64,000 nt of DNA from sequence record MT129654.1; one strand, given 5' to 3'. Under the pieces are notes generated by a model. That model saw only the letters and a list, made by a program, of their open reading frames with translations, made no database searches and was not told the origin of the DNA. The DNA is from Escherichia phage MN04. Positions within the stretch are counted from its first letter, which is position 1. Each line of letters starts with the position of its first letter. Positions 1 to 60,718 of this stretch are shown here, in pieces. Made by a program: the position numbers and the translations under genes.

Positions 1-1097
1 AAGACTTTGTAATCCAAGAAACCGATAATGTTTCGATGGCATTTACTCCTTCTCCGGACGGGTTCCGTCAACTGACGTATGTAAACAATATCCATACTAA
101 GAACGGTGGTCACCACGTTGAATGTGTGTTTGATGATATCTGTGAGCACCTTCTGCCTGGTATTAAAAAGAAATATAAAGGAATCGAAGTAACTAAGGCT
201 CGTGTTAAAGAATGCCTTACTATGGTAATGTTCATTCGTGATATGAGCAATATGCGTTTTGATTCGCAGACTAAAGAGCGATTAACCTCTCCGTTTGGCG
301 AGATTCGTAACCATATCCAAATTGATGCTAAGAAAATTGCAACGGCTATTCTTAAGGTCGATGGGTTGATTATGCCTATCGTCGAAGCCGCTTTAGCACG
401 TAAACTCGCTGCCGAAAAAGCCGCCGAAACAAAAGCTGCTAAGAAAGCTTTGAAAGCCAAGGTCCATAAGCATATTAAAGCCAATATGTATGGCAAAGAT
501 GCTGATACGACTTTATTCCTTACGGAAGGTGATTCTGCAATGGGTCCTTTCATTGAAGTTCGTAATAAAGACCTCCAAGGTGGTTATCCGTTACGCGGAA
601 AGGTTATGAATACCTGGGGTATGACTGCTGCTGATATCATGAAGAACAAAGAATTGTTTGATATCTGTGCAATCACTGGACTGGTTATTGGTGAACCTGC
701 AGATAAAACCAACTATCGTAATATCGCTATCATGACTGACGCCGATGTGGATGGTACTGGTTCGATTTATCCTTCGTTATTAGCTTTCTTTAGTCAGTGG
801 CCGGAATTGTTTGAACAGGGACGAATTCGTTTCTGTAAGACTCCTGTAATCATTGCTCAGGTTGGTAAAGAACAGGAATGGTTCTATGATGTACCTAGTT
901 ATACCAAAGCTAAGGACTCTCTACCAAAACATTCCATTCGATATATTAAAGGTTTAGGTTCTCTTGAGAAAGCTGAATATCGTCGAATGATTCAAGACCC
1001 TAAATTTGATGTGGTTCAATTACCTGAAGATTGGAAAGAACAGTTCGAAATGCTCCTAGGGAATGACCCACAGCTGCGTAAGGCTTGGATGTCATAA
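1..1097 (+). CDS. 39: DNA topoisomerase II large subunit (GyrB-like, unsplit 39+60 form), 5'-truncated at window edge
   Basis: Reading frame open from window start; TOPRIM motifs EGDSA and IAIMTDADVDGTGSIYPSLL; C-terminus resembles T4 gp60 end; sits upstream of rIIA. Confidence 0.85.
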   Translation, partial: DFVIQETDNVSMAFTPSPDGFRQLTYVNNIHTKNGGHHVECVFDDICEHLLPGIKKKYKGIEVTKARVKECLTMVMFIRDMSNMRFDSQTKERLTSPFGEIRNHIQIDAKKIATAILKVDGLIMPIVEAALARKLAAEKAAETKAAKKALKAKVHKHIKANMYGKDADTTLFLTEGDSAMGPFIEVRNKDLQGGYPLRGKVMNTWGMTAADIMKNKELFDICAITGLVIGEPADKTNYRNIAIMTDADVDGTGSIYPSLLAFFSQWPELFEQGRIRFCKTPVIIAQVGKEQEWFYDVPSYTKAKDSLPKHSIRYIKGLGSLEKAEYRRMIQDPKFDVVQLPEDWKEQFEMLLGNDPQLRKAWMS

Positions 1098-1139
1098 TAA
1101 ATACGTACGGTACATGAGTACCGTATAAAAGGAGACTTT

Positions 1140-6472: not shown

Positions 6473-6562
6473 GTAGCAAAATGTGGTGCCTTATTTGGAT
6501 AGCCTGTATCCCAGTGATTTGCGTATGTTTTAGTTTATTGTTGTGGAAATTGGCATAAATCA

Positions 6563-6614
6563 GTATACATCTCCATTAGACATGATATTATAGACCTATC
6601 AACTAATGGAGATG
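6563..6614 (+). promoter_or_regulatory. early promoter cassette with long-range inverted repeat covering the SD
   Basis: GTATAC, 17 nt, TATTAT; arms CATCTCCATTAG 6568-6579 and CTAATGGAGATG 6603-6614. Confidence 0.5.
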
Positions 6615-6617
6615 ATT

Positions 6618-6728
6618 ATGAAAAACTTACTTAAAGCAATTTGGAACATGTTTGTGTTATTGGTTGTATTGAGCATTTTCCCAATAGTTTTTATGATTGA
6701 CCATGTACGTGTATTCTTTAACTTCTGA
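6618..6728 (+). CDS. hypothetical small membrane peptide (36 aa)
   Basis: ATG after GGAG SD; hydrophobic core FVLLVVLSIFPIVFMI; below track cutoff. Confidence 0.25.
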   Translation: MKNLLKAIWNMFVLLVVLSIFPIVFMIDHVRVFFNF

Positions 6729-8012: not shown

Positions 8013-8089
8013 TGAGCAATTTCCATAACGAACATGTGATGCAGTTCTATCGTAACAATCTTAAAACTAAAGGCGTCTTCGGACGCTAA
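8012..8089 (+). CDS. stp: Stp peptide (activator of host anticodon nuclease in T4)
   Basis: 25-codon [28 protein letters not shown], near-identical to recalled T4 Stp; start overlaps ndd stop (TAATG). Confidence 0.7.
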
Positions 8090-8099
8090 TGAGGAAAAT

Positions 8100-8261
8100 A
8101 TGATTATCCTAGTTTTTATTGAACTTATTATGGCTATGGTTTGTTCAGTTTGCTTCTTTTTAGGTGTATGGACCCCTGGTCCGGTATTCTTAAGTTTTCT
8201 GTTTATTGGCTGGGTTCTTTCTACTTTTGTCGGTTTACTTAAGACGATTAAAAATGATTAA
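8100..8261 (+). CDS. small hydrophobic membrane protein (ac-like by position)
   Basis: 53 aa, ATG after GAGGAAAA SD; sits between stp and gene 52 as T4 ac does; identity not verified. Confidence 0.35.
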   Translation: MIILVFIELIMAMVCSVCFFLGVWTPGPVFLSFLFIGWVLSTFVGLLKTIKND

Positions 8262-9778: not shown

Positions 9779-9879
9779 GCCTTGGAGTCGAGTTCTTGTT
9801 ACTCTGTATCTTTGCTGTTATCCTAGGCCTGGCGACAGGCTTAGCTATAGGTTTAATAGCAGCCCACTTTAAAAAGTAA
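9775..9879 (+). CDS. hypothetical small membrane peptide (34 aa)
   Basis: ATGA overlap with gene 52 stop; hydrophobic; followed by terminator. Confidence 0.25.
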   Translation: MSLGVEFLLLCIFAVILGLATGLAIGLIAAHFKK

Positions 9880-9900
9880 GGAACCTTCGGGTTCCTTTTT
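9880..9900 (+). terminator. rho-independent terminator after gene 52 operon
   Basis: GGAACC-TTCG-GGTTCC hairpin + TTTTT. Confidence 0.6.
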
Positions 9901-9919
9901 GGGTTTAGTGCAAAAAAGT

Positions 9920-9948
9920 GTTTACATCTGCTTTAAACATGATACTAT
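9920..9948 (+). promoter_or_regulatory. early promoter cassette, repeat copy 1
   Basis: GTTTAC, 17 nt, TACTAT; contains TGCTTTA (MotA-box-like). Confidence 0.5.
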
Positions 9949-12410: not shown

Positions 12411-12499
12411 GCACGATTTCAATAAGGCTTCGGTCCATAAGGACAAGAAGAAAAATTTTAAAGAGTCCAAGCGTAAGCAGAAACATAAGGGTAAAGGGT

Positions 12500-12658
12500 A
12501 TGAGTCATAACTTAGAGAATACCGTAACAGGTATGCGTACGCGTGAGCAGGAGTGCTTTGAGGAATTCCTAGGAGCTGATTTTAAGTTCCAGGAACCTAT
12601 TGAAGAAATGTATCAGGAATATGTTAAAAAGAACGAAGAACATGTTTACAATCCATAA
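12500..12658 (+). CDS. hypothetical small protein (52 aa)
   Basis: ATG with AAGGG SD; below track cutoff. Confidence 0.25.
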   Translation: MSHNLENTVTGMRTREQECFEEFLGADFKFQEPIEEMYQEYVKKNEEHVYNP

Positions 12659-12672
12659 GGATATGTTATTAT
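12644..12672 (+). promoter_or_regulatory. early promoter of asiA
   Basis: GTTTAC, 17 nt, TATTAT. Confidence 0.5.
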
Positions 12673-12713
12673 AGCCTTATCAGATAATGTCGTACTGAAT
12701 TGAAGAGAATATT

Positions 12714-42110: not shown

Positions 42111-42434
42111 ATGGAACTTCCTATTAAAGCGGTCGGAGAATATGTTATTCTCGTTTCCGAACCAAAACAAGCTGGTGATGAAGAAACTACTGCATCTGGT
42201 ATCGTTATTGGCAAACTTCATCAAGGTGAAATCCCTGAACTTTGTGAAATTTATTCTGTAGGACCTGATGTCCCTGAAGGTTTTTGTGAAGTAGGTGATT
42301 TGACTCCACTTCCTGTTGGTAAGATTGCTAACGTGCCACATCCTTTAGTTGCATTGGGTATTAAACAGCCTAAAGAAATTAAACAGAAATTCGTTACCTG
42401 TCACTATAAAGCTATTCCGTGTCTTTATAAGTGA
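42111..42434 (+). CDS. 31: co-chaperonin gp31 (GroES-like, capsid folding)
   Basis: 107 aa; [15 protein letters not shown]...[32 protein letters not shown] matches T4 gp31. Confidence 0.9.
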
Positions 42435-42442
42435 TATAAATA
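42435..42442 (+). promoter_or_regulatory. late promoter motif TATAAATA upstream of rIII
   Basis: Exact T4 late consensus just after gene 31 stop. Confidence 0.4.
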
Positions 42443-42580
42443 ATAATATGGATTGGCTGCCGGACTAGTTAGTTAACCGGAGAATCCTAAGCGGTGGACT
42501 ACAACTGAGAGACTTGCCGAAAGGAAGTGAAATTCAGAAGAACATGTCCACCAATCTTTATCTCGAATCGAGAATTTAAA

Positions 42581-42829
42581 ATGAACAAACATCTGAATCA
42601 CGCTCTTGAACTGCAACGCAACGCTTGGAACAACGGTCACGAAAACTACGGCGCATCTATTGATGTTGAAGCCGAAGCACTGGAAATCCTGCGTTATTTC
42701 AAACATCTTAATCCGGCTCAGGCTACTCTGGCTGCTGAATTGGAAGCAAAAGATGAACTGAAATATGCTAAGCCTTTGGCTTCAGCAGCTCGTAAAGCAG
42801 TACGTCATTTTATTATTACCCTGAAGTAA
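42581..42829 (+). CDS. rIII: rIII lysis-inhibition accessory protein
   Basis: 82 aa from ATG 42581, same length as T4 RIII; MNKHLNHALELQRN start; track start 42527 non-ATG. Confidence 0.75.
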   Translation: MNKHLNHALELQRNAWNNGHENYGASIDVEAEALEILRYFKHLNPAQATLAAELEAKDELKYAKPLASAARKAVRHFIITLK

Positions 42830-43183
42830 AATCGAGGAGCCGTCGAACTGTCTGATTAATGATTTGCGAATCATTATAGTTTTAAGACCCCCGGCAGTTT
42901 TACGGTGTACCTCTTGAATGGTATTTTATAGCGGCAAGTGCATGCTACCCCGAGGTGATGGCCAATCGGGAGTACGCCTCAAGGCCTATATATCCATCAG
43001 TATATATCTTATCCTCGAGAAATCGAACCCGGAACCTTTAAGCTAACGGTGTGCAACAGATAAGAGCTATGATGACGAGGTTTACGGTTATCCTGTCGTT
43101 AAATATCTAAAACCTATGTTCCCCTTGAGGGCTTGCGCAGGCAATGCCAATAAGTCCTGCATCCTAATTTAAGAGATTTAAAA

Positions 43184-43345
43184 ATGGCTAAGAAAGAAGT
43201 TAAAGTAGTTGACGGAACCTCTAAACGCGCTGGTTACAAGCGTGCGTCTAACAAGCGTATCAATCAGGTAGTTGATAAGCTTCAAGCTCGTGCTCGTGCA
43301 GTATTGCGTGCAGATGCTGCTTGCTTCGGTAAAGTTATTGCATAA
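43184..43345 (+). CDS. hypothetical small basic protein (53 aa)
   Basis: ATG after AAGAG; Lys/Arg-rich; followed by strong terminator; below track cutoff. Confidence 0.35.
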   Translation: MAKKEVKVVDGTSKRAGYKRASNKRINQVVDKLQARARAVLRADAACFGKVIA

Positions 43346-43350
43346 GTTAT

Positions 43351-43378
43351 GGGACTCTTCGGAGTCCCATTTTTGTTT
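43351..43378 (+). terminator. rho-independent terminator
   Basis: GGGACTC-TTCG-GAGTCCC hairpin + ATTTTTGTTT. Confidence 0.65.
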
Positions 43379-43396
43379 CTAAATCTTTAAAAAAGG

Positions 43397-43460
43397 GTAT
43401 ACATCTCCAGTAGGCATGATACTATAGACATGTACCAAATAATACGAAAACAAACTGGAG
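43397..43460 (+). promoter_or_regulatory. early promoter cassette with SD-covering inverted repeat
   Basis: GTATAC, 17 nt, TACTAT; arms CTCCAGT 43405-43411 and ACTGGAG 43454-43460. Confidence 0.5.
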
Positions 43461-43470
43461 AATAAAATGA
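43431..43470 (+). repeat. 40-nt direct repeat (leader/RBS cassette), copy 1
   Basis: TGTACCAAATAATACGAAAACAAACTGGAGAATAAAATGA identical to 43837-43876. Confidence 0.8.
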
Positions 43471-43799
43471 AAACTGTAAACCTGAATGCATCTGTTAAAG
43501 CTAAATGTTTCAACGGTGAATATCAAGAAACCATGTGGGTCCTGACTGCAGTTGAAGGTGATATCATCGAAGTTGAAACAACTGAAGGTATGGGTACTGA
43601 TTTCACATTTACCATCGAGCTTCACAACTTCTTTACAGGTTGGATTTATGAACTGAAAACTGTAATTACTGGTCGTATTGAAGAAAACAAAATTGGTGAA
43701 TTCTATTACGTTAATGCCCGTACACGTGCTGAACGTCTGATTGCTCAGATGAAAAAAGTTGGTAAACTTGATATGAAAAATTGGAATGTTGTGAAATAA
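43467..43799 (+). CDS. hypothetical protein (110 aa)
   Basis: ATG after CTGGAGAATAAA cassette, copy 1 of 40-nt repeat. Confidence 0.4.
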   Translation: MKTVNLNASVKAKCFNGEYQETMWVLTAVEGDIIEVETTEGMGTDFTFTIELHNFFTGWIYELKTVITGRIEENKIGEFYYVNARTRAERLIAQMKKVGKLDMKNWNVVK

Positions 43800-43802
43800 A
43801 TG

Positions 43803-43842
43803 TTTTACTTTGGTACAGGTTGTGTTATTATAGACCTGTACC
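43803..43842 (+). promoter_or_regulatory. early promoter cassette with stem-loop
   Basis: TTTTAC, 17 nt, TATTAT; GGTACAGGT/ACCTGTACC inverted repeat. Confidence 0.45.
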
Positions 43843-43876
43843 AAATAATACGAAAACAAACTGGAGAATAAAATGA
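43837..43876 (+). repeat. 40-nt direct repeat (leader/RBS cassette), copy 2
   Basis: Identical to 43431-43470. Confidence 0.8.
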
Positions 43877-44238
43877 ACTACATCAACTTCGAACGTAAAT
43901 ATGTTTCTAACGGTATCGCTGGTTCTTCTGAAGTTATTTGTCTGTGGAAACACAACAACGGCACAGTGTGCGAAATCGAACAGTGCATGACTCCTAACTA
44001 CGTTTATATGCGCTTTGAAAATGGTATCACGGTTTCAATCACTATGGAAGGTTCTACTTTTAAAATCGCTTTGGATGATGATTTCCGTCAACGTGATTTA
44101 GGTACCCATCCTTGCTGGAACGGTGATAATCGTAAGCTTCTGGTTAAAACCTGGATTCGTCACATCCTGAGCAACCGTGCTAAACCTGAACACCTGGAAG
44201 CAATCTTTGATGTAGTTCTGAATGAATTTGATATCTAA
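43873..44238 (+). CDS. hypothetical protein (121 aa)
   Basis: ATG after identical 40-nt leader cassette, copy 2. Confidence 0.4.
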   Translation: MNYINFERKYVSNGIAGSSEVICLWKHNNGTVCEIEQCMTPNYVYMRFENGITVSITMEGSTFKIALDDDFRQRDLGTHPCWNGDNRKLLVKTWIRHILSNRAKPEHLEAIFDVVLNEFDI

Positions 44239-48071: not shown

Positions 48072-50159
48072 ATGACCGAACAATTAAATGAAGTGTTTGA
48101 GTCCGAAGGCACCCTGCCTACTGTAAACTTAAACCCAAAACTTAAAGTACCCCAGATTTGGAAGATTGGCGACGCCGAATCCCAATTAGTTGCTCGTATG
48201 GTATCTTATGCCTCTGAAGGCGATGCTATTAAACAGGTTAAATTAGGTGATAAATATGCCCACGTTATTTTGATGAGTTTATCAGCTAAAGGTACTCCAG
48301 CCGAACTTAAAGGTGGATTAGGCCCTACTCCTATTGATGCTATTAATACCATTTTCGACGTAGTATTCGAACAAGTTAAAAAGCTTCGTATGGATGCTGT
48401 GATGTTCCGTTTTCCAACCAAGAAAATGAAAGGACAAGGACCTATTGTCCAACGGATTATCCAACGTTTGGTAGCACAGAAAACCGGTGGACGTTTTAAA
48501 GTAGTTCCAGCCATGTACCAATTTACCGGTAAACATACTTATATCCTAGTAGTTCGTAAACAAGCTGATATCGAAGATATCAAAGGTATGCCTGGAATTA
48601 ATGCCGAATTATATACTAAGGTAGATTCTGATGTTGGTGAAGTTTATATTTCTAAAAAAGAAGGCGCTCAGGTTACTAAAGAAACCGCTATTGCCGGCAG
48701 TATTGCTAAAGTTGAAGAACGTCGCACTGATAAAATGGTTATAACCAAGACTAAGATTTCTCGTCGTGCGATTGCGGCAAGCCAGTCATTAGAAGCAGAC
48801 CGTAATGAAGGTGAATTATTTCAGAAATATGAACAAACTGCCAATGAGTTCAGTGCGCCTGCTACGGCGGAATTAATTCCACAAGCAGCCGAAGTTGAAT
48901 TATCATTATCATCCGAAACAGCTAAGGATAAGCTGGCTACGGCTATTGATTTTAAAATTTATAATACTATGGATGATTCATTTAAATTTGCGGATGAAGT
49001 TTCTTACGGTGATAAAATTAACTCTTCTTTAGAAAAATTTGTCAAAAAAATTAAAAATGAAAAAACCACGTCAGTTAAAGCTTTAGCCGCCTTTGTTGAA
49101 GCTGCTAATGAAATCGCAGAATCTATTAAAAGTGATTGGTTTGAAGATTATAGAAAAGACAATTTCCATTTGGAAAAAGAGATATTGAATGAAAACAGTG
49201 AAAGAGTATGGAAACAACGTAAGTCTTCATTCTTGTCTAAGATAATGTATACATACGCTATAGAATCAACTAGAGAAATTCTTAATATAACAACATCTCG
49301 AGACCCTAAACAATATACACTTGCAGAAAAACGAGCTATCAGAGAATACGCCTCTTCAGCTTATATTGATATTAACAATGTCCTTCTTGGCCGTTATAAA
49401 CCGGGCTTTTATGAAGTTTTGGACGAAAGCGAAGTTAAACGTGCTATTGATGGAATGGATTCTGCCTTTAAAAATGGTGACCGTTTACCTGAAGGAATAA
49501 TGGTTTATAGAGCACAATCTTTGCGCGCGCCTATCTACGAAGCATTAGTTAAAAATAAGGTATTCTATTTTAGAAACTATGTTTCAACCTCATTGGCTCC
49601 AATCATTTTTGGTGGCTTTAAAGAGAATGCGGCTATTGGTCTTGCTTCCGATGATGTTCGAAAAGAATTAAACATTGATAATAATGACGAAGGCGTTACC
49701 ATCTCTGCTAGTCAAGTGCGTACACATATGTATGCGCCGGATCAAATCCGTGTTGATGTTGGCTGGGCTATTAGTGGCGCTCATAAGGTTAACGTGATTT
49801 ATCCTGGCCAATTAAGCATGCATGCCAACGAAAAGGAAATAATTTTACCACGCGGGCTACTTGTAAAAATAGATAAAATCGTGGATGCATCAGCCAATAC
49901 TGGTTCTGGGGCGGTTTCTAACAATAAATTTATTCAAGCTGAAGTTATGACATCAGATGAGCTTCAAGAATCTGTAGTGTATGATGGTGACGTACTAATG
50001 GAAACCGGTGAGTTGGTCGTATACCAAGATGACTTCGATACTTCCGAAAGCCCTGTATCTTTTGATTCATTTGTTAAATCTACACGGTTTGACGTACTGC
50101 CTCTTTTGGCTTCATGCATAGACCTCTATGGCATACCAGAAAAATTCATCCAAGGGTAA
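48072..50159 (+). CDS. alt: Alt-like ADP-ribosyltransferase, copy 1
   Basis: 695 aa; locus between gene 30 and gene 54 as T4 alt; C-terminal R/S-x-S/E-x-E signature: VYRAQSL, YVSTSL, EKEIILPRG. Confidence 0.75.
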   Translation: MTEQLNEVFESEGTLPTVNLNPKLKVPQIWKIGDAESQLVARMVSYASEGDAIKQVKLGDKYAHVILMSLSAKGTPAELKGGLGPTPIDAINTIFDVVFEQVKKLRMDAVMFRFPTKKMKGQGPIVQRIIQRLVAQKTGGRFKVVPAMYQFTGKHTYILVVRKQADIEDIKGMPGINAELYTKVDSDVGEVYISKKEGAQVTKETAIAGSIAKVEERRTDKMVITKTKISRRAIAASQSLEADRNEGELFQKYEQTANEFSAPATAELIPQAAEVELSLSSETAKDKLATAIDFKIYNTMDDSFKFADEVSYGDKINSSLEKFVKKIKNEKTTSVKALAAFVEAANEIAESIKSDWFEDYRKDNFHLEKEILNENSERVWKQRKSSFLSKIMYTYAIESTREILNITTSRDPKQYTLAEKRAIREYASSAYIDINNVLLGRYKPGFYEVLDESEVKRAIDGMDSAFKNGDRLPEGIMVYRAQSLRAPIYEALVKNKVFYFRNYVSTSLAPIIFGGFKENAAIGLASDDVRKELNIDNNDEGVTISASQVRTHMYAPDQIRVDVGWAISGAHKVNVIYPGQLSMHANEKEIILPRGLLVKIDKIVDASANTGSGAVSNNKFIQAEVMTSDELQESVVYDGDVLMETGELVVYQDDFDTSESPVSFDSFVKSTRFDVLPLLASCIDLYGIPEKFIQG

Positions 50160-50162
50160 ATA

Positions 50163-52286
50163 ATGGAAAATTTAAACGAAGTTTTTGATAGTGATTCCGC
50201 TAAAAACTATCCAGTAACAAATCTTAAGCCGGGCTCCGGTATCCCACAGATTTTCTCTATCCAAGCACCAGGTAACGATAACCTGGTTGCTCGTATGGTA
50301 TCTTATGCGTCTCAAGGAGACGCTATTAAAATGGTTAAGCCAGGCGACAAATATGTCCATGTTATTTTAATGAGTTTGTCGAGCAAGGGTGCTCCAGCCG
50401 AACTCAAAGGTGGTCTTGGTTCCGACCCACTTGGTGCATTGAATACTATTTTTGATACGATATACGAACAAGTAAATAAACTTAAAATGGATGCGGTTTT
50501 GTTCCGTTTCCCTACCAAGAAAATGAAAGGTAAGGGCCCTACTGTTCAGCGTGTATTAGCTCGTTTGGCGATGGCACGTACCGGTGGTAAGTTTAAAGTT
50601 GTCGATGATATGTTCCAGTTTAGTGGTAAACATACATACGTTCTTTTAGCACGTCGTGGCACTAATATCGAAGATATCAAGGGTATGCCTGAAATTGATG
50701 CGGACCTTTATACCAAGGTTGAGTCTAAAGTCGGTGAAGTTTATGTTTCTAAGAAAACCGGCCAGGCCGTAAGTAAGGTCGAAGCCGTAGCGGCATCTAT
50801 TGCACAGGTTGAAGAGAAACGTACCGATAAGGCTGTTATCTCTCGTACTAAAATTTCCCGTCGTATGGCTGCAGCAGCGCAGTATTCTACTGCCGAACCT
50901 GAAACTTTATCACCTAAAGAATTGCAGGTTTATAACGAGTTTGAAGCTTCTGTCCCTGTTCACTCGGCCGAAGGCCCTGAGAACGAAGGTATTGAGCAGA
51001 TTAGTCAGAACTTTAAAAAAGGTGCTATTACTAAAATGCGTCAGGCCTCTCAGTTTAAATCTAAGAGTGAGGACCTTGCCAACTTTAGATACACCATTGC
51101 TCTCACGCACGCTTTAATGACTGATAGTAAATTTAAACTAAATTATGCTAATAGAGATAAACAAGGGTTTGAAATTTACTCTAATAATATGGCATTTTTT
51201 AATACGGAAGTCGATAGACTTTTAAGTGGCCTTTCTCAAATCAATACTACCAATAGTCTGGATATTATTAAGAGAATTGTTAATAACCTGAGTGCCCGTT
51301 TTCAGGGGTCTCCTTCAGAGAAAGCATCCCGAATTGCTTTCGCTATGGAAGCCGTTTATAAACTGATTAACGATTCTATTAGCGATGCATATGCTTATTC
51401 AGGCGAGCTCATTAAACCTAAGGGCTTGACCAAAGACGAAAGTAATGCCATTATTGAATATTGTGCGGCTGAATATGCTCCTATGAACTTATTCCTTTTA
51501 GGTAAACCTGAATCCGAAAACAATACAACAGCTATTAAATTGATTAAGGATTTAGACTCAGCATTTACCAAGGGTATTAAACTTCCTAAGGGTACTATTT
51601 TGTATCGTGGTCAGGATTTACCATACAAAATTCTGCGCCATAATATTGATAACAAAACATTTTACTTTAAGAACTTTGTGTCCGCTTCATTAAAGCCTAA
51701 TATCTTTGGCGAATTTGGTAAAAATTATATGGCCCTCGACAACCAAGCAGTTTTTGTTGGCGATGAAGGTTCTTTATCCTCCGCTGATGAGTTGTTTAAA
51801 TTAGCCAGTGGTAGTTCATCTGATGTAGGCGAAGTTGATGATGAAGAGGTAGAATGGGAAGAAGACGAGTTCGGTAATCCAATTGCACCTGAAGGCCCTG
51901 CAGACAGGATTGCTGAAATCGGTATGGTTATTCGAGGTGCTGAAGCAGTTAAAGTTATCGCTCCTGGTGACCTTACAGAATATTCCGAAGAAGCAGAAAT
52001 TATCCTTCCGCGAGGATTATTGTTGAAGGTTGATAAAGTAGCGGCTTTTGCTATGAATGATAGAGTATCTCACAAATACCTTATGGAAGCTACAGTGACA
52101 TCTCCTTCAGAACTCAGTGGGTCCGTTTACGATGGTGACCATCTGATGGAAACCGGTGAAGTTAAATTGATGAATGGGTTTAAAGAATTCCTAGTTTCAG
52201 AATCTGTTTCAGAAAGTAATGAGGCTATGGAAATCCTTGCTGCATCTTTGGACATCTCTTCTTTACCAAATAAATTCAAAATGTAG
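50163..52286 (+). CDS. Alt-like ADP-ribosyltransferase, copy 2 (divergent paralog)
   Basis: 707 aa; N-terminal region clearly homologous to copy 1; ART signature LYRGQDL, FVSASL, EAEIILPRG; central region unrelated. Confidence 0.7.
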   Translation: MENLNEVFDSDSAKNYPVTNLKPGSGIPQIFSIQAPGNDNLVARMVSYASQGDAIKMVKPGDKYVHVILMSLSSKGAPAELKGGLGSDPLGALNTIFDTIYEQVNKLKMDAVLFRFPTKKMKGKGPTVQRVLARLAMARTGGKFKVVDDMFQFSGKHTYVLLARRGTNIEDIKGMPEIDADLYTKVESKVGEVYVSKKTGQAVSKVEAVAASIAQVEEKRTDKAVISRTKISRRMAAAAQYSTAEPETLSPKELQVYNEFEASVPVHSAEGPENEGIEQISQNFKKGAITKMRQASQFKSKSEDLANFRYTIALTHALMTDSKFKLNYANRDKQGFEIYSNNMAFFNTEVDRLLSGLSQINTTNSLDIIKRIVNNLSARFQGSPSEKASRIAFAMEAVYKLINDSISDAYAYSGELIKPKGLTKDESNAIIEYCAAEYAPMNLFLLGKPESENNTTAIKLIKDLDSAFTKGIKLPKGTILYRGQDLPYKILRHNIDNKTFYFKNFVSASLKPNIFGEFGKNYMALDNQAVFVGDEGSLSSADELFKLASGSSSDVGEVDDEEVEWEEDEFGNPIAPEGPADRIAEIGMVIRGAEAVKVIAPGDLTEYSEEAEIILPRGLLLKVDKVAAFAMNDRVSHKYLMEATVTSPSELSGSVYDGDHLMETGEVKLMNGFKEFLVSESVSESNEAMEILAASLDISSLPNKFKM

Positions 52287-60394: not shown

Positions 60395-60492
60395 TGAGAC
60401 GTACTAAAAATACCAAACCCATTAAAGTAGATGCCGATAAGATGAAACTTCTCCAAGAATTCATTAATGCCGCTTTAGCAAGTAATAAATAG
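60394..60492 (+). CDS. hypothetical small protein (32 aa)
   Basis: TAATG overlap with uvsY stop; below track cutoff. Confidence 0.25.
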   Translation: MRRTKNTKPIKVDADKMKLLQEFINAALASNK

Positions 60493-60520
60493 ATATGTAA
60501 GTTAAACTAAGGAGACAATC

Positions 60521-60688
60521 ATGTCAGATAAGATTTGCGTTGTCTGTAAAACTCCAATCGATGCTGCATTGGTTGTTGAAACAGAAAAAGGCCCGGTTCA
60601 TCCGGGTTCATGTTATAATTACGTTCAAAGCATGCCTGTTACGGAAAACACTGAAGAACAGCTGAACGAAACACAATTATTACTTTAG
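60521..60688 (+). CDS. hypothetical small Cys-containing protein (55 aa)
   Basis: ATG after AAGGAGA SD; CVVC motif; followed by terminator. Confidence 0.35.
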   Translation: MSDKICVVCKTPIDAALVVETEKGPVHPGSCYNYVQSMPVTENTEEQLNETQLLL

Positions 60689-60718
60689 TCTAGTGTGTAT
60701 AGCCATTTTATGGTTATT

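Follow-up and report, generated by a model that had tools for sequence, protein, structure and literature searches.

T-even phages carry structured RNAs that still have no known function: rnaC and rnaD of T4 (species 1 and species 2) are 119–139 nucleotides (nt) long and lie in the tRNA cluster. Orphan RNA motifs from phages and metagenomes, of the kind that Rfam names "motif", are defined only by conserved sequence and compensatory changes. Here, we analyzed a 64,000-nt stretch of DNA (one strand, called the window below) from Escherichia phage MN04 (sequence record MT129654.1), a JS10/JS98-like Dhakavirus and thus a T-even-type phage of E. coli. Positions 42830–43183 of the window, called the island below, are exactly the spacer between the genes rIII and 30.9, both on the plus strand. 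We put at about 90% the probability that this island consists of conserved plus-strand RNA structures and that its central part, a 141-nt four-way-junction RNA (module B), is an autonomous domain. Like the orphan motifs, module B is non-coding, phage-borne, placed on the strand of the flanking genes and recognized by conserved sequence and compensatory changes only, but it differs from all 4227 families of Rfam 15, even at E ≤ 10. It is similar in size to rnaC and rnaD, but lies outside the tRNA cluster and is absent from T4. Run with filters off against the T4 tRNA/rnaC/rnaD region, its covariance model scored at most 8.6 bits (E = 0.23), at a site that lies outside rnaC and rnaD as annotated. 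Judged by sequence comparison, module B is a new RNA family.

Two other kinds of RNA resemble module B in architecture. Four-way-junction riboswitch aptamers (SAM-I, Mn2+ yybP-ykoY) are also closed by a P1 helix and combine invariant junctions or internal loops with covarying peripheral stems; module B, in contrast, has no covariance-model match, no conserved expression platform and no consistent downstream gene. Four-way-junction ribozymes are often found in mobile or viral RNA. The natural hairpin ribozyme and twister-sister share with module B a small perfect four-way junction and arms with conserved internal loops. However, their loop-bearing arms are adjacent, whereas those of module B (P2 and P4) are opposite, and no model matched. 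At the level of the whole island, comparable described systems are the PeSL cassettes of T4-type genomes (PMC2839356, PMC4122927), which are likewise mobile non-coding modules of variable regions, found at the borders of gene gain and loss. These cassettes consist of a terminator hairpin and an early promoter in multiple copies, while the island modules are single-copy and contain neither consensus.

The fold of module B has a perfect junction without any unpaired junction nucleotide (RNAalifold, 21 distinct sequences; Table 1). Among 25 distinct homologues, 99.1% of the cells are paired and 28 of the 43 pairs have changed on both sides; the alignment was fitted to a model derived from these very homologues, so that both values are somewhat inflated, but the controls fall far below them: sliding the partners by 1–3 columns left 24.7–42.5% of cells paired and 2–6 double-changed pairs. 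None of 500 shuffles matched the covariation. The closing helix P1 covaries (UAGC/GCUA, AAAC/GUUU, AAUC/GAUU, GUAG/CUAC), and P4 varies from UCUUAUC/GAUAAGA to UUUCAUC/GAUGAGA, UUCUAUC/GAUAGAA and UUCGUG/CACGAA. Even P4b, invariant otherwise, changes from ACCCG/CGG.GU to ACCUG/CAG.GU in Citrobacter phage Citrof4. About 50 nucleotides are invariant, and they cluster in a single internal loop and a single inner junction. In the pairs of module B, G-U outnumbers A-C by 49:1, and we therefore conclude that it is selected as plus-strand RNA, the strand of the genes. A pairing of the 5′ loop with the 3′ junction (UGCA/UGCA) was also considered and discarded, as variants break it. An initial annotation, made from the letters of the window, had suggested that the island could encode a structured small RNA or leader. 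Folding with covariation across related phages bears this out: conserved plus-strand structures were found, and the spacer is built of folds kept by compensatory substitutions.

Several points besides the fitted alignment weigh against our overall explanation of the island, set out below. The folding energy of module B alone is unremarkable (z = −0.52), so that comparative data have to carry the whole case for it. Its homologues are for the most part closely related, and it is about eight divergent lineages that contribute the decisive variation. The tetraloop of P4a does not always follow the GNRA pattern (GAAA, GUAA, UAAA and UAAU occur), so that a tertiary contact cannot be deduced from it. 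In the Tevenvirinae examined, module B always lies upstream of 30.9 and on the same strand, which leaves room for a role in cis. Just past the rIII stop codon, the outer pairs of the first hairpin of the island (module A, GAGG/CCUC) contain an invariant GGAG, which by motif match could be a RegB cleavage site; RIII modulates RegB through S1 (PMC9409239). As a whole, the island folds as a single sequence no more stably than shuffles (z = −1.00 and +0.62 for the two strands). Thermodynamics alone would have missed module B, because these single-sequence z-scores are unremarkable.

The modular build of the island emerged from its relatives. By blastn, it matched 996 phage records, only 178 of which cover at least 80% of it. 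T4 matches in two pieces (94.5%) with the middle missing, and Klebsiella, Serratia and Erwinia phages match the middle only. For mapping, we defined modules A (42830–42925), B (about 42929–43069), D (43067–43183) and C, the last from Klebsiella and Erwinia phages, and followed them over 33 loci around rIII. The orders found were A-B-D (window), A-D (T4), A-x-D, D alone, C-B (Klebsiella and Serratia phages), B-C (Erwinia phages) and C alone. More distant T4-like phages lack the island, and one locus (L047) has 30.9 directly after rIII, with no spacer. Identity between the window and T4 is 92.7% in A and 88.2% in D, compared to 78.6% in gene 31, 83.5% in rIII and 66.8% in 30.9. Compared to a Klebsiella Jiaodavirus, module B is 92.9% identical and the genes 72–73%. 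By the repeat families of the window, no part of the island recurs outside it. The modules are single-copy units that fold independently, and the non-coding parts are more conserved than the adjacent genes, which shows strong purifying selection. The initial annotation had also proposed a remnant of a foreign or mobile insertion. Alignment with T4-like genomes supports the insertion, since the central 141 nt are inserted relative to T4 and occur elsewhere at another locus, but not the remnant, because module B is intact and more conserved than the neighbouring genes.

In some phages, a third cassette, CUAUCACGUGUCAGAAAAAGGUUAUCUGUCUAAGCCGUGGUUGG, fills the junction of modules A and E instead of module B (L023, about 1848–1896; L028, 1750–1795). 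Its stem covaries from CAGA/UCUG to CAGC/GCUG.

Module B matches 410 phage records, 161 from Klebsiella and 130 from Escherichia, followed by others; further hosts of its carriers are Shigella, Enterobacter, Yersinia, Salmonella, Citrobacter, Serratia, Erwinia, Edwardsiella and others. The covariance model did not find it in T4 or in distant T4-like phages, and many Tequatroviruses also lack it. Some Tequatrovirus copies are 100% identical to the Dhakavirus copy while the flanking modules are several percent apart, and the position of module B relative to module E varies between genera. Divergent full-length copies are present at a different locus in Yersinia phage JC221 and in Citrof4 (102 and 91.5 bits). 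There, the uvsY gene cluster precedes module B, and only hairpins and a terminator lie between module B and the convergent uvsW. No homologue of 30.9 was found in the vicinity in JC221 by tblastn, and none is annotated beside module B in Citrof4. Citrof4 is classified as a Pseudotevenvirus, and its closest Pseudotevenvirus relatives lack module B. An exact scan for the 19 most conserved bases gave 15 metagenome contigs, one of them (L061) by chance, and no match in 185,579 bacterial and archaeal species genomes. Blastn with module B found nothing in 5,426 E. coli genomes, which speaks against mimicry of a host RNA by sequence, and only chance matches in plasmids; a degenerate pattern run on viral contigs likewise gave only chance matches outside the known clade. 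On this distribution, we consider that module B is an autonomous, accessory RNA domain that moves between phages and loci.

The uvsY-uvsW spacer of JC221 (L067, 500–1335) and Citrof4 (L086, 1286–1620) forms a second RNA island of 330–800 nt, which contains module B and a small hairpin (GUACCC...GGGG) and ends in both phages with a bidirectional terminator. In JC221, it also holds an E-like element, seen by eye only, and a GGUGAnnnGCUACC..AGUGC element. Klebsiella phage vB_KpnM_17-11 (L068) carries a broken module B, with the 5′ two-thirds at 898–1001 (plus strand) and the 3′ part inverted at 1066–1122 (minus strand); this is either a rearrangement or an assembly error.

The remaining modules of the island are common to T4. 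In module A, compensatory changes occur in all three stem segments (RNAalifold, 17 variants): CCGU/ACGG becomes CCAU/AUGG, AACUGUC/GGCAGUU becomes AAUUGUC/GACAAUU, and UAAUGAUU/AAUCAUUA becomes UAUCGAUU/AAUCGAUA. Its single-sequence fold has z = −2.43. The 8-base-pair (bp) hairpin TAATGATT-TGCG-AATCATTA, already pointed out in the initial annotation, is real although it lies 2 nt from where it had been placed. By our estimate, a random stretch of 354 nt would contain about 0.03 such hairpins, and in relatives it covaries. A second pairing suggested at the same time, between CCTCAAGG (42977–42984) and CCTTGAGG (43123–43130), did not hold: both sequences are present, but chance alone would give about one complementary pair of 8-mers in a stretch of this length (estimate), relatives have not kept the complementarity, and T4 holds the second half without the first.

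Module E was found in every island examined, T4 included. Pairing reaches 93% in its stem S1, where two pairs show 10 and 7 double changes, and 75% in S2, with the variants UAGUAGUU/AACUACUA and CAAGGUU/AAUCUUG. The covariation score of module E was reached by 0 of 500 shuffles, and G-U outnumbers A-C by 41:3. Like the autoregulatory pseudoknot of gene 32, it is an H-type pseudoknot in the leader of a gene for a small basic protein and is kept in T4; its sequence is different, however, and an E-like sequence seems, by eye, to be present in the JC221 island, which lacks 30.9. A small leader open reading frame (ORF) starting at the AUGAUG of module E was rejected, as its length and frame differ between phages. 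The small hairpin that follows keeps its pairing in variants (CCUC-UUA-GAGG, CCC-UAU-GGGG, CCC-UUCGA-GGG), and a related hairpin adjoins module B at the uvsY-uvsW locus of Citrof4, where it ends in CAUG instead of CUUG (GUACCCCUUGUGGGGCAUGG). Hairpin F covaries as AACUGG/CCAGUU in locus L037 and as GGGAGC/GCUCCC, together with a 60-nt insertion, in Klebsiella phages; the scan did not call it a terminator.

Table 1. Features of the rIII–30.9 locus of phage MN04, in window coordinates
Feature	Position	Strand	Details
Late promoter TATAAATA	42435–42442	+	Upstream of rIII; invariant in window, T4, Klebsiella, Erwinia and Edwardsiella phages (alignment)
rIII, coding sequence	42581–42829	+	82 amino acids; upstream neighbour; PHROG 1457, lysis inhibition accessory protein, E = 5.6e-43; JS10 annotation
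Module A, long interrupted hairpin	42834–42913	+	Apex is the 8-bp hairpin, 42857–42876
Module B, four-way-junction RNA	42929–43069	+	141 nt; covariance model 170.7 bits, only copy in the 64-kilobase (kb) window
Module B, helix P1	42929–42932/43066–43069	+	Made by nucleotides flanking the conserved core
Module B, helix P2	42933–42935/42984–42986	+	Conserved internal loop AAGUGCAU / CUCAAG and 13-bp extension
Module B, helix P3	42987–42993/43000–43006	+	7-bp hairpin
Module B, helix P4	43007–43013/43059–43065	+	UCUUAUC/GAUAAGA; encloses P4a, P4b and GCAACA
Module B, helix P4a	43015–43018/43023–43026	+	GAAA loop
Module B, helix P4b	43027–43031/43047–43052	+	
Module B, GCAACA	43053–43058	+	Invariant, inside P4
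Module E, H-type pseudoknot	43069–43115	+	A-rich connecting loop; alignment of 19 variants
Module E, stem S1	43072–43076/43095–43099	+	AUGAC/GUCGU, plus GG/CC 43079–43080/43092–43093; 5–7 bp
Module E, stem S2	43086–43089/43111–43114	+	GGUU/AACC; S1 loop with downstream AACC stretch
Small hairpin	43121–43135	+	CCC-CUUGA-GGG, then CUUG; contains CCTTGAGG
Hairpin F	43137–43160	+	GCAGG...CCUGC, loop CAAUGCCAAUAAGU; just upstream of the 30.9 ribosome-binding site
Gene 30.9	43184–43345	+	53 amino acids, basic; downstream neighbour; PHROG 1427 (function unknown), E = 6.5e-26; JS10 annotation
Intrinsic terminator	43349–43370	+	After 30.9, ends the rIII-island-30.9 unit; 9-bp stem and T run (scan)

Over the 1 kb around the island, identity to phage JS10 is 99.1%, and gene 31, rIII and 30.9 are annotated there in the JS10 record. 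A consensus scan of 42830–43183 found no promoter- or terminator-like site, and the sole terminator follows 30.9; the island is therefore expected within the rIII–30.9 RNA. The promoter proposed in the initial annotation (GTTTTAC at 42897–42903, 17 nt, GTATTT at 42921–42926) exists as letters, but its best register reaches 8 of 12 matches with a scan threshold of 9, and GTTTTAC, the proposed −35 element, is the 3′ strand of the covarying module A stem. From the orientation of the genes, the late promoter ahead of rIII and the strand-specific G-U pairs, we infer that transcription should start upstream and cross the island as part of the rIII–30.9 RNA. The late promoter is likely the start of a single transcript crossing the island. 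In T4, rIII is reportedly served by early, middle and late promoters (PMC9409239). As for RNA features of rIII and 30.9, the literature searched yielded only a reference to a 2003 Biologija paper.

The spacer between gene 31 and rIII (42435–42580) contains the late promoter and then a leader with a long covarying stem, GGUGGAC...GUCCACC. Its T4 counterpart is GGUAGUC...GACUACC.

We propose that the island is a transcribed spacer of the rIII–30.9 operon, assembled from RNA modules. Modules A and E, the small hairpin and hairpin F probably have housekeeping roles in the messenger and would serve mRNA stability, processing and 30.9 translation: the module A hairpin would close off the rIII cistron, and the pseudoknot and hairpins would lead into 30.9. 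Module B would be a self-contained functional RNA that travels as a passenger within the mRNA and may be excised from it at the base of P1. Specific binding of a conserved host or phage partner (protein, RNA or small molecule) would let it serve, for example, as a decoy, a sponge or a scaffold, and it would not act by controlling a neighbouring gene. Partner binding is suggested because the invariant nucleotides lie in loops and junctions and because the form is kept in two unrelated gene contexts, one of them without a downstream gene. We regard this passenger mechanism as tentative, with a little less than an even chance of being right. A bolder possibility, about which we are more doubtful, is that module B represents the first of a new ligand-binding or catalytic RNA class in virulent T-even-type phages, which would spread horizontally as an accessory RNA gene free of protein. 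Such an RNA could be a decoy or sponge for a factor of host defence or RNA metabolism, a riboswitch-like sensor, or a self-cleaving ribozyme.

Module B might instead work in cis as a processing or stability device, namely a new self-cleaving ribozyme or an RNase entry or stop signal, that separates rIII from 30.9 or sets the 3′ end of the uvsY-operon transcript. We consider this unlikely, although it accounts for some of the data. Known small ribozymes are common in phage intergenic DNA, and module B resembles small ribozymes in its compact P1-closed build with invariant loop and junction nucleotides. It also always lies within or at the end of a co-directional transcription unit, between cistrons. 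However, T4 and many relatives express the rIII–30.9 operon without module B, the L047 locus has no spacer at all between the two genes, and no cleavage site can be inferred from the sequence. A covariance-model scan did not match any known family either: the 4227 families of Rfam 15, among them ribozymes, riboswitches, small RNAs, leaders and introns, gave no hit anywhere in the window at gathering thresholds, nor any within 42400–43450 at E ≤ 10.

Other known RNAs were looked for as well. ARAGORN found no tRNA or tmRNA gene in the window, and by eye the P3 loop of module B has no conserved U33-like position. A group I intron, as in td, nrdB and nrdD of T4, had no Rfam match and module B interrupts no coding sequence; with 141 nt, it is also below the size of known group I cores. 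We rejected a minus-strand tRNA T-arm (GGTTCGAT), a hammerhead core (UGAUGA...GAAA), a kink-turn or C/D box in module E, and likenesses to SAM-I (UCUUAUC/GAUAAGA, ACCCGG.AACC), RNase P and 16S helix 27 (GGGAGUACG..CAAGG), because their pairings conflict with the covariation or because neither a model nor blast gave a match. The sequence of module B was not found in the literature searched, the 10,000 candidates of a 2023 catalogue of viral structured RNAs not having been compared.

That module B is a riboswitch-like or protein-operated leader, acting on the translation of 30.9 or on read-through, appears improbable to us. The constant placement upstream of 30.9 in the Tevenvirinae examined is what such a leader would show, aptamers typically have such a multi-helix junction closed by P1, with conserved nucleotides at the junction, and 30.9, small and basic, might bind RNA. 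Module B indeed has the conserved, covarying, P1-closed fold of a riboswitch. On the other hand, it has no fixed 5′-leader position with a platform overlapping P1, and its downstream neighbours vary between genera. In the window, 117 nt and three other modules separate it from the start of 30.9, the intervening modules differ in Klebsiella, Serratia and Erwinia phages, and we saw no conserved alternative pairing with P1. Conversely, T4 has 30.9 without module B, whereas the copies in JC221 and Citrof4 have neither a 30.9 homologue within the reach of the searches described above nor any gene before the terminator. It is this uvsY-uvsW context and the variable spacing that weaken the idea of a 30.9 leader.

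Three further explanations are largely excluded. One is a DNA-level element (a replication origin, a recombination hot spot or a nuclease target) in which the inverted repeats act as DNA. T4 has a uvsY-associated origin, module B occurs in the uvsY-uvsW region of Pseudotevenvirus-type phages, and the spacer is a site where modules are gained, lost and exchanged between phages. We nevertheless give this explanation very little weight on account of the G-U asymmetry: the pairs of modules B and E tolerate G-U but not A-C, as expected of plus-strand RNA and unlike duplex DNA or cruciforms. In addition, invariant single-stranded blocks and a pseudoknot have no obvious meaning in DNA. Equally remote is a PeSL-type promoter-terminator cassette that mediates gene shuffling in T4-type phages. 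The mobility of the modules, their variable region and the promoter-like hexamers of the initial annotation would suit it, but no part of the island is repeated in the 64-kb window, compared to 8 copies of the early-promoter repeat family (D1), and the scan found neither promoter nor terminator in the island, the hexamers falling short at 8 of 12. A true unit of terminator and early promoter lies just downstream, at 43349–43452.

As stated in the initial annotation, neither strand of 42830–43183 has an ORF of at least 60 amino acids; the longest has 42 (plus strand, 42918–43046). The gap without such an ORF actually spans 42830–43421, as 30.9 encodes only 53 amino acids. A small protein gene that has decayed or been missed, which some GenBank records annotate and which the initial annotation had kept in view under the form of a gene with frameshifts, is hardly credible: short ORFs such as the 42-residue one do overlap module B and some records call hypothetical proteins there, but these lie on differing strands and frames from phage to phage, the longest ORFs differ in strand, frame and ends among 11 homologues so that no conserved ORF is found in module B, relatives share no ORF, frame or strand, 1–2-nt indels are common in the alignment, and substitutions come as compensatory pairs.

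The G+C content, on which the initial annotation had also relied, is of less help. At 43.5%, the island exceeds the window average of 39.4% and falls in the 90th percentile of 354-nt windows, but it equals the flanking genes (43.4% in rIII and 44.4% in 30.9). Only its central 141 nt reach 48%. The general reading of the initial annotation was right, but most of the cues it leaned on are not those that matter.

Although T4-type phages rank with the best-studied viruses, module B itself is not annotated in the records examined, belongs to no Rfam family and is not described in the literature searched; its absence from T4 is the likely reason why it was overlooked. Conservation of module B exceeds that of the surrounding proteins, yet it is dispensable and mobile. 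Counter-defence and host-takeover functions are often conserved yet dispensable and mobile. Many carriers of module B infect Klebsiella, E. coli or Enterobacter and were isolated for therapy, and a defined 141-nt fold with clear borders makes its function directly testable. The rIII–30.9 spacer of T4 itself also holds conserved RNA structures (the GGAG hairpin, the pseudoknot and further hairpins), which may matter for mRNA control linked to RegB, S1 and RIII.

Elsewhere in the window, we made a few minor observations. A PeSL-like unit lies 3′ of 30.9, where the terminator at 43349–43370 is followed by a copy of the early-promoter repeat at 43388–43452, one of the 8 mentioned above. A 55-nt block with a promoter and a ribosome site (43417–43471) is duplicated at 43823–43877 with 95% identity. 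Further stretches of at least 120 nt without a 60-amino-acid ORF on either strand are found at 6473–6696, 8013–8205, 9779–9921, 12411–12713 and 60457–60694. Finally, diverged direct repeats at 48189–48659 and 50286–50756, 2097 nt apart, match over 283 nt (75% identical) and 95 nt (83% identical), which looks like a tandem duplication of coding sequence.

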